IMG/VR virus record: IMGVR_UViG_2778261203_000004
Origin: a virus
Taxonomy: Duplodnaviria > Heunggongvirae > Uroviricota > Caudoviricetes
Strand: one strand, 5' to 3'
DNA: 11,745 nt
Each line of letters begins with the position of its first letter. The stretch's first letter is position 1. Below the pieces are notes generated by a model, which searched no databases, had not been told where the DNA came from, and saw only the letters and a program-made list of their open reading frames with translations. A program made the position numbers and the translations under genes. Positions 7,744-10,535 of this stretch are shown here, piece after piece.

Positions 7744-8163
7744 TTAAGAGGCTTTTTGTTTTTTCTTTCGTGCTAACTCTTCGTAAATTGCATTGTACTT
7801 CTGTTTTTTCTCCTCAAGAGTTTTTAAAAGTTCATCTGTCTCACTGTCAGGGAGCTCGTCCAGAAGGTCAATGATGATTTTTTGTCTTGGATTTAACTCC
7901 TGATAGAAACGTATCTGTCCACTTTCTTCTGTATCCTCTCCCAAAAGATAGGTTGGTGTTGTTCCAATGAGTGTTGCTAATTCCCTTAATTTCTCTCGGC
8001 GAGGAATTGTTTCACCATTAAACCATTTGCTAACCGCTTTTGGTGTTAATTTCATTCGACGGGCAATTTCTGCCTGCCTTCCATGTTGTTCATAACCAGC
8101 GTTTTCACAGGCTAGCGCAAGCCTACTGGCGAACTCTTTACGCGCTTTATCTTCATGAACCAT
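7744..8163 (-). CDS. racR: RacR, CI-like prophage repressor with helix-turn-helix (139 aa in this sequence)
   Basis: Helix-turn-helix segment RQAEIARRMKLTPKAVSKWFNGETIP. No ATG, GTG or TTG lies in frame between 8163 and the upstream stop at 8218-8220, so the ATG at 8163 is the only start. No obvious Shine-Dalgarno, so it may be translated from a leaderless or short-leader mRNA. Confidence 0.85.
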   Translation of the reverse strand: MVHEDKARKEFASRLALACENAGYEQHGRQAEIARRMKLTPKAVSKWFNGETIPRREKLRELATLIGTTPTYLLGEDTEESGQIRFYQELNPRQKIIIDLLDELPDSETDELLKTLEEKKQKYNAIYEELARKKKQKAS

Positions 8164-8242
8164 AAGTTCAATGATATTCGCTCTTGAATGTACTGTCAGT
8201 TCTGTTATAGCATGTACTCAAAGTTCACATTGTGAGGGTGAT
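8164..8242. promoter_or_regulatory. Divergent racR / ydaS promoter-operator region (79 bp)
   Basis: ATGTACT at 8188-8194 and 8212-8218; AAGTTCA at 8164-8170 and 8221-8227; inverted repeat TTCAA-N12-TTGAA at 8166-8187. A candidate rightward promoter is TTGAAT (8184-8189), 16 bp spacer, TATAGC (8206-8211); the heptamers overlap its -35 and start region. GAGGGTGAT ribosome-binding site precedes the ydaS ATG at 8243. Confidence 0.5.
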
Positions 8243-8497
8243 ATGAACCAGAAAACACTTGAAGATGTAATCAAAACTGTTCGCGTTTCTGTTGTGGCCG
8301 ACGTTTGTGGTGTCAGCCAAAGAGCAATCTACAAATGGATGGATAACGGAAAATTGCCTCGCACAGAATATACCGGCGAAACAAATTACGCTGAAAAAAT
8401 CGCTCATGCATCAAACGGATTATTTTCTGCCGATGCAATTTTAACTATTGGCAGAAATAAAACTACTACGAAAAAGCTGATGGGAGTTGATTCATGA
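8243..8497 (+). CDS. ydaS: YdaS, Cro-like helix-turn-helix protein (84 aa from ATG 8243; track ORF starts at 8171)
   Basis: Helix-turn-helix VADVCGVSQRAIYKWMDNGKLP. ATG 8243 has a GAGGG Shine-Dalgarno; the ATG at 8171 would leave only 7 bp between divergent genes and has no ribosome-binding site. The stop overlaps the ydaT start as ATGA. Confidence 0.7.
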   Translation: MNQKTLEDVIKTVRVSVVADVCGVSQRAIYKWMDNGKLPRTEYTGETNYAEKIAHASNGLFSADAILTIGRNKTTTKKLMGVDS

Positions 8498-8916
8498 AAA
8501 TCAAGCATGAGCACATCGAATCAGTGTTGTTAGCCCTGGCAGCCGAAAAAGGGCAGGCGTGGGTCGCTAACGCAATTACTGAAGAATATCTGCGCCAGGG
8601 GGGCGGCGAATTGCCCCTGGTACCAGGCAAGGACTGGAACAATCAGCAGAATATCTATCATCGTTGGTTGAAAGGTGAAACGAATGCGCAAAGGGAAAAA
8701 ATTCAGAAACTGATCCCTGCGGTTCTGGCAATTCTTCCTCGCGAGCTGCGTCACCGACTCTGCATCTTCGATACCCTGGAACGCCGTGCATTACTGGCGG
8801 CACAGGATGCACTGAGTACGGCAATTGATGCGCATGATGATGCAGTCCAGGCCGTTTACCGTAAAGCACATTTCAGCGGCGGCGGTTCTCCTAGCGATTC
8901 TGTCGTAGTGCATTGA
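8494..8916 (+). CDS. ydaT: YdaT, CII-like / toxic prophage protein (140 aa)
   Basis: 140 aa ORF, GGGAG Shine-Dalgarno at 8480-8484, start overlapping the ydaS stop. Sequence MKIKHEHIESVLLALAAEKGQAWVANAITEEYL recognised from memory. Confidence 0.8.
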   Translation: MKIKHEHIESVLLALAAEKGQAWVANAITEEYLRQGGGELPLVPGKDWNNQQNIYHRWLKGETNAQREKIQKLIPAVLAILPRELRHRLCIFDTLERRALLAAQDALSTAIDAHDDAVQAVYRKAHFSGGGSPSDSVVVH

Positions 8917-8928
8917 TTGAAATTAATC

Positions 8929-8952
8929 GTACCGAACTGTTTTGTTCGGTAT
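8929..8952 (+). other. Stem-loop immediately downstream of ydaT (8 bp stem, 6 nt loop)
   Basis: TACCGAAC tgtttt GTTCGGTA. No clear U-tract follows, so it is not a convincing intrinsic terminator; it may be a processing or attenuation structure ahead of ydaU. Confidence 0.3.
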
Positions 8953-8960
8953 CAGTTAAA

Positions 8961-8981
8961 TGTAACGCTGCGAGCGTTACA
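8961..8981. repeat. Palindrome TGTAACGCT-gcg-AGCGTTACA, copy 1 (intergenic, 13 bp upstream of the ydaU ATG)
   Basis: Perfect 9 bp inverted arms with a 3 bp centre; it overlaps the ydaU ribosome-binding-site region. Confidence 0.7.
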
Positions 8982-8993
8982 AGGTGAAAACAA

Positions 8994-9782
8994 ATGGCTT
9001 CAAACTGGATAAAGCTCGAAGTTATTACGCCGGATAAGCCGGAAATATTCAGGCTTGCTGAGATTCTGAATATTGATCCAGATGCCGCATTAGGGAAAGT
9101 CATTCGCTTCTGGGCATGGGCGGATCAACAAATGATAGACGGTAACGCAGAGTGTAACGCTCGCGGCGTTACAAAAAGTGCAATAGATCGCATCACTTTT
9201 ATGGCTGGTTTTGCTGATGCGTTAATTCAGGTTGGATGGCTGGTCGAAACTAATGGTGTGTTGTCGCTTCCTAACTTTGAGCGCCATAACGGGAAAAGCT
9301 CTAAAAAACGGGCGGTTACAAACGAGAGAGTAACAAAAATACGAGAACTGAAACGAAAAGGTAACGCTGCCAGCGTTACAAAAACGGATCAAAAAGCGTT
9401 ACCAGAGGAAGAGAAAGAGGAAGATATAAATACTTATCTCCCCCTAAATCCCCCTCGCCAAAAACGAGCGTCTAAAAAATTCGAACCGGAGGCTATCGAG
9501 CTGCCTGACTGGTTGCCGGAAACACTCTGGCATGAGTGGGTTCAGTTCAGGCAGGCATTGCGAAAACCGATTCGAACGGAGCAGGGCGCTAACGGGGCGA
9601 TACGGGAGCTGGAAAAATTCCGCCAGCAGGGTTTTTCACCTGAGCAGGTGATTCGACACAGCATCGCCAACGAATACCAGGGCTTGTTCGCGCCGAAAGG
9701 TGTTCGACCTGAGACGTTACTCCGACAGGTTAACACCGTCTCGTTACCGGATAGTGCGATCCCGCCAGGCTTCAGGGGGTAA
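8994..9782 (+). CDS. ydaU: YdaU, putative replication-initiator (lambda O-like role) protein (262 aa)
   Basis: ATG 8994 preceded by AAGGTGA; an in-frame stop at 8985-8987 excludes a longer N-terminus. Position directly upstream of the DnaC-like loader, and the internal palindromes, support an initiator role. Confidence 0.8.
   Translation: MASNWIKLEVITPDKPEIFRLAEILNIDPDAALGKVIRFWAWADQQMIDGNAECNARGVTKSAIDRITFMAGFADALIQVGWLVETNGVLSLPNFERHNGKSSKKRAVTNERVTKIRELKRKGNAASVTKTDQKALPEEEKEEDINTYLPLNPPRQKRASKKFEPEAIELPDWLPETLWHEWVQFRQALRKPIRTEQGANGAIRELEKFRQQGFSPEQVIRHSIANEYQGLFAPKGVRPETLLRQVNTVSLPDSAIPPGFRG
9153..9173. repeat. Palindrome TGTAACGC-tcgcg-GCGTTACA, copy 2 (inside ydaU)
   Basis: 8 bp inverted arms; an extra half-site GTAACGC lies at 9142-9148. 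Encodes the peptide ECNARGVTK. Confidence 0.7.
9361..9380. repeat. Palindrome GTAACGCTG-c-CAGCGTTAC(A), copy 3 (inside ydaU)
   Basis: Perfect 9 bp arms. Further half-sites at 9313-9320 (CGGTTACA), 9330-9335 (GTAACA) and 9386-9392 (GCGTTAC). Encodes KGNAASVTK. Followed by an A-rich, purine-rich tract at 9400-9480. Confidence 0.7.
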
Positions 9783-9788
9783 CTGACC

Positions 9789-10535
9789 ATGAAAAATATT
9801 GCGACAGGCGACGTTCTTGAACGTATCCGCAGACTGGCCCCGTCACATGTAACCGCGCCATTCAAGACGGTAGCGGAGTGGCGCGAGTGGCAACTTTCCG
9901 AAGGCCAGAAACGTTGTGAGGAGATCAACCGTCAGAATCGTCAGTTGCGGGTGGAAAAAATTCTGAATCGCTCTGGCATCCAGCCATTGCACCGCAAATG
10001 CTCGTTTTCGAATTACCAGGTGCAGAACGAAGGGCAGCGATACGCGTTGAGTCAGGCGAAATCCATCGCTGATGAACTGATGACCGGGTGTACAAATTTT
10101 GCGTTCAGCGGAAAACCTGGTACCGGGAAGAACCACTTAGCGGCAGCTATCGGGAATCGCCTGCTGAAAGACGGTCAGACAGTGATTGTGGTTACCGTGG
10201 CTGATGTTATGAGTGCCCTGCACGCCAGCTATGACGATGGGCAGTCAGGCGAAAAATTTTTGCGGGAACTGTGCGAAGTGGATCTGCTGGTTCTTGATGA
10301 AATTGGCATTCAGCGCGAGACGAAAAACGAGCAGGTGGTACTGCACCAGATTGTTGATCGCCGGACAGCGTCGATGCGCAGCGTGGGGATGCTGACAAAC
10401 CTGAACTATGAGGCCATGAAAACATTGCTCGGCGAGCGGATTATGGATCGCATGACCATGAACGGCGGGCGATGGGTGAATTTTAACTGGGAGAGCTGGC
10501 GTCCGAATGTCGTCCAGCCAGGAATTGCGAAGTAA
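9789..10535 (+). CDS. ydaV: YdaV, DnaC/IstB-like AAA+ helicase-loader ATPase (248 aa)
   Basis: Walker [16 protein letters not shown] and Walker B LLVLDEIG motifs; GGGGG Shine-Dalgarno 6-10 nt upstream of the ATG. Confidence 0.85.

Follow-up and report, generated by a model that had tools for sequence, protein, structure and literature searches.

The segment 8961-9454 of the window, an 11,745-nucleotide (nt) stretch of tailed-phage DNA (Caudoviricetes, IMG/VR record IMGVR_UViG_2778261203_000004), is very probably the replication origin of a Rac-like prophage. Judged from its sequence, this origin would lie within and just ahead of the gene for its own initiator, as in phage lambda, with the gene for a DnaC-like helicase loader next. 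The initiator gene (8994-9782, plus strand) encodes 262 amino acids (aa; WP_001396581, annotated 'hypothetical'), with an N-domain (aa 11-96), a linker (aa 97-160) and a C-domain like the C-terminal domain of DnaT (aa 170-262). The next gene, ydaV (9789-10535, plus strand), encodes a DnaC/IstB-like helicase loader with matches to Pfam IstB_IS21 (E=9e-20) and PHROG 50, 'DnaC-like helicase loader' (E=2e-85).

The properties expected of a lambda-type origin were found: dyad sites are enriched in the initiator open reading frame (ORF), they lie in linker DNA, a melt-prone region is found downstream, and there is conservation and co-variation at the level of DNA. An initial annotation of the window had proposed an origin embedded in the initiator gene and followed by an A-rich, purine-rich tract and the gene for a DnaC-like YdaV. 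The embedded origin is supported by codon tests, a non-coding copy of the palindrome and co-changing half-sites, and the identity of ydaV by the IstB_IS21 and PHROG 50 matches.

Organisation of the proposed origin

The motif GTAACGC-N5-GCGTTAC is found exactly at 8962-8980, 9154-9172 and 9361-9379 (three copies against 0.04 expected; none of 200 shuffles reached three), and the three palindromes of 19-21 bp are thus located as first claimed. No additional copy was found in 19 kb of the identical prophage. For the half-site GCGTTAC the window has 10 copies where 1.18 would be expected; eight of these are inside the 441 bp from 8962 to 9402. The repeated peptides reported for this region, CNARGVTK, AVTNERVTK and GNAASVTK, are correct.

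The core of the region is 9312-9439; the clusters that include the palindromes at 9153 and 8961 are auxiliary. The left edge of the core cluster, cluster B, consists of two degenerate half-sites (9312-9335), GCGGTTACA at 9312-9320 and GAGAGTAACA at 9326-9335, with GTTAC/GTAAC cores. The central palindrome GGTAACGCT-GCC-AGCGTTACA follows at 9360-9380, in DNA encoding a disordered linker, and the terminal half-site AGCGTTACC at 9395-9403 encodes a conserved A-L-P and adjoins the purine tract. Of the half-sites listed in the initial annotation (9142, 9313, 9330 and 9386), the one at 9142 is present, those at 9313 and 9330 keep only the 5-nt GTTAC/GTAAC core, and the one placed at 9386 is really at 9396-9402. 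The spacing of about 200 bp that had seemed unusually wide is not the geometry of the core, in which half-sites are 11-12 bp apart against the purine tract.

The tract itself, AGAGGAAGAGAAAGAGGAAGA (9404-9424, plus strand), is a pure-purine run of 21 nt with the form (AGAGGA)n, the local version of a family-wide (GAAGA)n, and is the proposed unwinding or helicase-loading element. It is followed by an AT-rich segment of 15 bases, TATAAATACTTATCT (9425-9439), which extends the low-stability region, and by the C-tract motif CCCCCTAAATCCCCC (9440-9454), near the start of the similarity to the ydaU gene of Escherichia coli K-12. The purine-rich tract earlier placed at 9400-9480 is therefore purine-rich as described, but is made up of these three parts. 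The most purine-rich 40-mer in all 11.7 kb is 9391-9430. The least stable 30-step duplex in the gene is 9409-9439, with -32.9 kcal/mol compared with a window mean of -41.4 (standard deviation 3.5).

Cluster A (9142-9173) comprises a half-site GTAACGC (9142-9148) and the palindrome TGTAACGC-TCGCG-GCGTTACA (9153-9173), both within the codons of the loop between helix 2 and helix 3 of the N-domain. The upstream intergenic palindrome TGTAACGCT-GCG-AGCGTTACA (8961-8981) is an exact match and a putative auxiliary initiator site, possibly an operator or a roadblock. It had been described as lying over the ribosome-binding site, which it adjoins but does not cover; the palindrome ends at 8981 and the Shine-Dalgarno sequence AGGTGA is at 8982-8987. 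The RNA of 8920-9010 has a predicted fold of -28.2 kcal/mol (z=-3.7). A perfect hairpin of 8-9 bp, TACCGAAC...GTTCGGTA, at 8929-8952, which begins just past the stop codon of ydaT and is separated from the upstream palindrome by 8 nt, adds to this fold; it is not a classical terminator, because it has no T-run. An 11-mer, CGGATCAA(C/A)AA, with a GATC Dam site occurs at 9121-9131 and 9385-9395, in both cases about 10 nt from a half-site.

When the initiator protein was compared with 50,697 phage records (tblastn), matches to its first 145 residues came from phages of Escherichia, Salmonella (epsilon15, SPN1S), Xanthomonas (CP2), Pseudomonas, Ralstonia, Vibrio, Klebsiella and Bordetella. From IMG/VR, 214 distinct homologous loci were gathered, and the taxonomic spread given here rests on these two collections. 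Homologs with no more than 28-65% identity (phages of Escherichia, Salmonella, Xanthomonas, Pseudomonas, Ralstonia and Vibrio) carry the same elements at matching places in the gene. Placed side by side, eight relatives have one layout. A palindrome at codons ~49-57 (peptide DGNAxxVTK) is followed by a second cluster at codons ~115-133 with half-sites in the order > > < <, of which the last, GCGTTACC (peptide A-L-P), touches a polypurine repeat (GAAGA)3-5. Phages of E. coli, Xanthomonas, Pseudomonas and Ralstonia have the cluster A palindrome at +149/+162, where a Vibrio phage has a compensated GTCAC/GTGAC variant. The tract is at +370 to +440 in nearly all of the 214 loci, with half-sites immediately before it. 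The GTTAC/GTAAC cores are at +322 and +337 in most enterobacterial relatives, where the orientation of the +337 core flips among relatives.

Of 62 non-redundant sequences (<80% identity), 54 carry three or more half-sites ahead of the tract, and the geometry was determined from these. Neighbours with the same orientation are 11 or 12 bp apart, one helical turn, in 86 of 107 cases, and most of the others are 22-24 bp apart. The commonest orders are >><< and >>><<, and the last half-site is 1-4 nt before the tract in 40 of the 54. A second cluster with the same half-site is found about 200 bp upstream of the core in the N-domain coding region, and enterobacterial members have a third in the upstream intergenic DNA. 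Iterons of plasmid origins with a RepA-like initiator are tandem direct repeats of 17-22 bp; the half-sites of this family are not of that type, being 7-8 bp long, of mixed orientation and 11-12 bp apart. Seven loci (L034, L063, L067-L069, L071 and L075) have an initiator ORF that is frameshifted or truncated (112-167 aa), while every half-site and mostly also the tract are kept; these ORFs represent either recent decay or assembly errors.

Downstream of the tract, TATAAA/TAAAGA is found in most homologs. Among 56 diverse homologs, about 10 have a motif of C5-7, 3-4 nt and C5-7, often followed by a G-run, 10-25 nt past the tract, and K-12 ydaU has it too. This C-tract motif, present in the window and in eight other loci (L007, L070, L195, L200, L209, L210, L240 and L245), encodes PPxxPP with rare CCC codons. 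The length of the enterobacterial (AGAGGA)n tract varies in frame, with 15, 21, 27 or 33 nt among prophages that are otherwise 93-100% identical (L011-L090), in the manner of a microsatellite.

Constraint on the DNA and distribution of the tract

The palindromes are kept beyond what the protein requires, which was a test set in advance: the synonymous-codon comparisons gave p values from 6e-7 to 2e-75, and the upstream copy is conserved in otherwise unrelated non-coding DNA. The glycine codon of the half-site is GGT in 46 of 62 sequences, compared with 63 of 276 at other conserved glycine columns (p=5e-14). Half-site alanine prefers GCT (p=8e-9) and valine GTT (p=6e-7). In the tract, where the motif was defined by the peptide [REK]E[EK][KR][RK][RK]E, all 107 arginine codons are AGA, while in the remainder of these genes AGA makes up 43 of 674 (p=2e-75), and this restriction to AGA holds even in the high-GC phages of Xanthomonas and Ralstonia. 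A repeat unit of 5 nt within a coding frame, together with 107 of 107 rare AGA codons, points to direct selection on the DNA. The 5-nt unit GAAGA gives the same peptide, REEKR, in all three reading frames.

The half-sites differ among subfamilies (GTAACG, GTCACG, GTCCGC, GTCCGG, TGTCCG, GTAGAT/C, GTTGCG or GTGGCG), while the two clusters of one phage match each other. The cluster B 6-mer of a phage is found on average 2.09 times in its own cluster A region, as compared with 0.11 for dissimilar motifs of other phages. In a Vibrio phage the dyad is kept by paired changes, GTAAC to GTCAC (N to H) and GTTAC to GTGAC (GTT to GTG, silent). The arms of the upstream palindrome are conserved with a variable spacer at -31/-18, -42/-29 or -43/-30 from the start codon, the intergenic flanks are unrelated, and the only relatives that lack the palindrome are those in which the upstream gene runs right up to the start codon.

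Over hundreds of phage contigs the (GAAGA)n tract is almost letter-perfect, at about +310 to +460 of each initiator ORF. It is not restricted to the N-domain family of the window. A scan of IMG/VR for the exact 23-mer AGAGAAGAGAAGAGAAGAGAAGA found it at 80 loci (L252-L331), and in 60 of these the tract is within an ORF of this N-domain family. Seven of the other 20 are cut at the 5' end, and eight uncut ones were compared with Pfam. Two of the eight matched Lin1244_N, one Phage_rep_org_N and four gave no match; two had sub-threshold DUF1376 matches only, one of these being also a Lin1244_N protein. The tract is 310-580 nt into the ORF in ten inspected loci outside the family. Most non-family loci have their own repeats of 11 or 22 bp directly before the tract, several of them purely direct. 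N-domains, C-domains and repeats all vary, so that only the tract stays the same between the two changing protein modules and beside the changing iterons.

It is possible, though rather less than an even chance, that the (GAAGA)n tract is a hitherto undescribed element of origins, shared by proteobacterial phages and others whose initiators have N-domains of several families (that of the window, Lin1244_N, Phage_rep_org_N and DUF1376-like). Such an element might be a fixed, strand-asymmetric opening or helicase-loading site 1-4 nt after phage-specific iterons, read as periodic single-stranded DNA, as are DnaA-trios, or by way of a triplex-prone mirror repeat. This would explain conservation to the letter while the flanking proteins diverge beyond recognition. 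Periodic single-strand recognition, a triplex-prone mirror repeat and a host factor are candidate reasons for the invariance. The open-access literature searched does not mention the tract, whose sequence turned up only in work on a Drosophila satellite and in other unrelated papers, and it yielded nothing on this initiator family; such absence does not establish novelty. The family, the half-site geometry and the conserved polypurine element appear to be undescribed, while the kind of origin is known from lambda and SPP1.

The initiator, its prophage and related systems

The 1.2 kb around the palindromes are 100% identical to a prophage that E. coli strain 7/2 carries beside ttcA, and prophages of O157:H7 strains match them with about 99% identity. 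From K-12 only both ends of this query align, in two pieces that make up 49% of it. The neighbourhood has the Rac layout, with intR, xisR, ralR, recT, recE, kilR, sieB, a repressor/cro pair, ydaT, the gene for the 262-aa 'hypothetical protein' and ydaV. By sequence comparison the window is a Rac-like prophage and not the Rac of K-12. Of 5426 complete E. coli genomes, 1533 have a match to the 1.2-kb initiator region, and for 679 this match spans 80% or more of the region, O157:H7 included. The initiator family comprises 1201 database proteins at E<=1e-5 and is found in hundreds of IMG/VR contigs. The immunity region (7744-8497) also differs from K-12 Rac in that racR/ydaS are replaced by a cro-like gene and the gene for another helix-turn-helix repressor (7744-8163, minus strand); since the flanking ydaT and sieB are common to K-12 Rac, this is another module swap in the same prophage.

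The initiator gene had been called ydaU. This label fits the C-terminal part, which is common to K-12 YdaU, but the N-domain and the repeats differ. YdaU of K-12 (285 aa) matches DUF1376 (PF07120, E=3e-26), whereas the window protein has no DUF1376 match and instead matches PHROG 2509, 'replication initiation protein' (E=5e-88); because of these matches 8994-9782 is not K-12 ydaU. The two N-domains show no detectable relationship (hhalign probability 0.2). At the DNA level the similarity starts only at about 9436-9525, the 3' part is about 95% identical, and the last 22 residues of the two proteins are the same. No Pfam family matched the window protein at E<=0.01, including PF04492, PF09681 and related models, and its match to PHROG 678, 'O-like', is confined to the C-terminal part. 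As aligned, the gene is a chimera of a winged-helix-like N-domain outside any Pfam family and a YdaU/DnaT-like C-domain.

An AlphaFold2 model was made from 31 homologs (mean pLDDT, the predicted local distance difference test score, 66). It has a confident N-domain of four helices and a beta hairpin at aa 11-96, disorder at aa 97-160 (pLDDT<50) and a confident C-domain of three helices (176-188, 196-211 and 216-225; pLDDT 81-91). Cluster A encodes a predicted surface loop (aa 49-60). Cluster B, the tract and the AT-rich segment (9312-9439) encode approximately aa 107-149, inside the predicted disordered linker. The modelled N-domain is winged-helix-like; it gave no sequence match in Pfam, NCBIfam or PDB, and Foldseek against PDB returned nothing significant.

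The C-domain (aa 170-262) resembles the C-terminal domain of E. coli DnaT (2ru8_A, E=1.6e-4; 9zbt_D, E=5.9e-4), with three predicted helices and an end that is identical in the two proteins, ...VNTVS.PDS.IPPGFRG. The C-terminal tail VNTVSLPDSAIPPGFRG (last 22 codons, window 9703-9782) nearly equals the C-terminus of the host DnaT, VNTVSEPDSQIPPGFRG. The near-identity of the tails hints that the phage initiator may mimic DnaT in its contacts with the restart primosome or with DnaB/DnaC. The role of the DnaT C-terminal tail is not stated in PMC13377028. Unlike the window protein, in which a putative sequence-specific N-domain replaces that of DnaT, DnaT is recruited to forks by PriA/PriB and not by sequence.

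The K-12 Rac prophage is of the same type as the window and has the same ttcA insertion site, the same flanking ydaT and ydaV and a near-identical C-domain including the DnaT-like tail; it differs in its DUF1376 N-domain and in its repeats, which are different and statistically weaker. Set side by side, the two prophages are a natural module swap, with the same flanks and C-domain and a different N-domain and repeats. In K-12 ydaU (L001 2082-2260) the repeat ATGTTCAAAC is found at 2121, 2154 and, on the minus strand, 2179, three copies within 70 bp, in addition to weaker copies. The repeats are followed by a purine/A-rich stretch of the GATAAAGAT type and then by CCCCCCCTAAATCCCCCCC, which is the order found in the window. 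Statistically they are weak, with 10 found and 5.2 expected (10-mer, two mismatches). This repeat region is a candidate for the sequence-level position of oriJ. The Rac origin oriJ was reportedly mapped by Diaz and Pritchard in 1979 and by Potrykus et al. in 2000. It is known as an active Rac origin (PMC3945230), and its sequence-level position was not found in the open-access literature searched.

Among known systems, the arrangement is closest in kind to ori, O and P of lambda and the variants of Shiga toxin (Stx) phages. In lambda, and as proposed for the window, the origin is in the middle of the initiator gene in DNA encoding an inter-domain linker, a region that opens easily comes after several dyad-symmetric initiator sites when the gene is read 5' to 3', and the next gene delivers the host DnaB helicase. 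Differences from lambda are also found. The window initiator is not an O homolog (no PF04492 match), its C-domain is DnaT-like and its partner is DnaC-like, not P-like. The family has half-sites of 7-8 bp with 11-12 bp phasing in the order > > < <, whereas lambda has four 19-bp iterons; the window has extra clusters about 200 bp and about 400 bp upstream; and the proposed opening region of the family is a strict polypurine repeat of pentamers or hexamers and not just AT-rich. Related lambdoid phages swap the N-terminal specificity module jointly with its sites (PMC7466680).

The window protein is also comparable to initiators outside the lambdoid group in that its origin-binding N-domain would be encoded by the gene that contains the origin. 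Bacillus phage SPP1 has a 'replisome organiser', G38P (Phage_rep_org_N, PF09681), and its oriL is inside gene 38, with repeats beside a melt-prone region. The same (GAAGA)n tract is present in one IMG/VR initiator gene matching PF09681, but the window protein itself has no such match, and host range and partners differ. In the bacterial oriC, DnaA-boxes lie beside the DnaA-trio, a single-strand feature at which opening and the binding of single-stranded DNA presumably begin. There too the duplex initiator sites directly adjoin a short-period repeat on one strand; the unit is 3 nt compared with 5 nt in the window family, the initiator is unrelated, and the likeness is one of analogy.

Mechanism and alternative explanations

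In the proposed mechanism, dimers or oligomers of the winged-helix-like N-domain would bind the phased half-sites on one face of the helix. The auxiliary clusters at 9142-9173 and 8961-8981 may add to or stabilise the complex, or they may titrate or regulate the initiator. A complex like the O-some would then strain the purine/AT tract beside it (9404-9439) to the point of opening. The DnaT-like C-domain could next coat the exposed single strand and, together with the DnaC-like YdaV, bring in the host DnaB. Through the intergenic palindrome, which has no promoter-like site nearby, the initiator may in addition limit its own synthesis, an autoregulatory role that the initial annotation had raised.

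Four observations weigh against this reading of the region. The co-variation of half-sites with the N-domain is partly linkage and not proof that the N-domain is the binder, because the iterons are physically inside the DNA that encodes the N-domain and linker. The predicted 'recognition' helix (aa 73-80) is hydrophobic. A classical unwinding element would be AT-rich, which the tract of most homologs is not. A small jackhmmer search of low sensitivity detected a DnaT-like C-domain in just 9 of the 70 family proteins that are full-length. Because only these nine are DnaT-like, binding of the C-domain to the tract cannot explain the universality of the tract, and it was rejected as the general reason.

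That the palindromes are operators only, bound by the initiator or another phage regulator to control transcription or the synthesis of the initiator, with the origin elsewhere in the prophage, is unlikely. Dyad-symmetric sites of 19-21 bp are typical of repressor operators, and the upstream copy, next to the ribosome-binding site and conserved in non-coding DNA, would suit such a role. A scan for promoters and terminators near the palindromes, however, gave nothing beyond shuffle expectation, and no promoter-like site is near any of the three; most sites are within the ORF at a fixed position relative to the conserved purine/low-stability tract, the upstream copy is absent from many subfamilies, and the architecture follows initiator genes of several N-domain families. 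It is the lack of a nearby promoter-like site and the fixed relation to the tract across families that make a purely operator role improbable. Slightly less probable still is that the inverted repeats act as hairpins, either in mRNA, for translation or stability, or in single-stranded DNA as a primosome-assembly site, and not as duplex binding sites. The > > < < order can fold as an interrupted hairpin, the RNA of 8920-9010 folds stably, the paired GTCAC/GTGAC change in the Vibrio phage also preserves a stem, and the C-domain resembles the primosomal protein DnaT. A stem does not need the half-site sequence that separate clusters of one phage share, nor does it account for a phasing of one helical turn (11-12 bp) or for the purely direct 11- or 22-bp repeats that precede the tract in other N-domain families; no covariance model of Rfam 15 matched 8700-9900 at E<=1.

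The least probable explanation, and a very improbable one, is that the region has no direct replication role, with the repeats and tract a by-product of the repeated peptide GNA..VTK / REEKRRE or the tract a homology patch for module recombination. The motifs are in frame and the peptides recur, and the tract is exactly at the junction of the variable N- and C-modules and common to otherwise unrelated genes, as a patch would be. Against this, synonymous positions are fixed, dyad symmetry has no meaning for a peptide, one copy is non-coding, and a 5-nt unit is kept in a coding frame with AGA as the invariable, rare arginine codon even in high-GC phages. The by-product reading is refuted by the codon tests and the non-coding copy.

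An origin embedded in the initiator gene thus remains the preferred explanation of 8961-9454, and it provides a concrete, testable origin for a very common yet unannotated initiator family. Like lambdoid phages, Rac-like prophages exchange modules made up of an initiator and its iterons. Phage initiation may be linked to the replication-restart machinery of the host, as the DnaT-like C-domain suggests. An almost invariant tract beside freely varying iterons, in several initiator families and hosts, would give a handle on DNA opening and DnaB loading in these phages, and it would be a simple sequence signature for finding phage origins in metagenomes.

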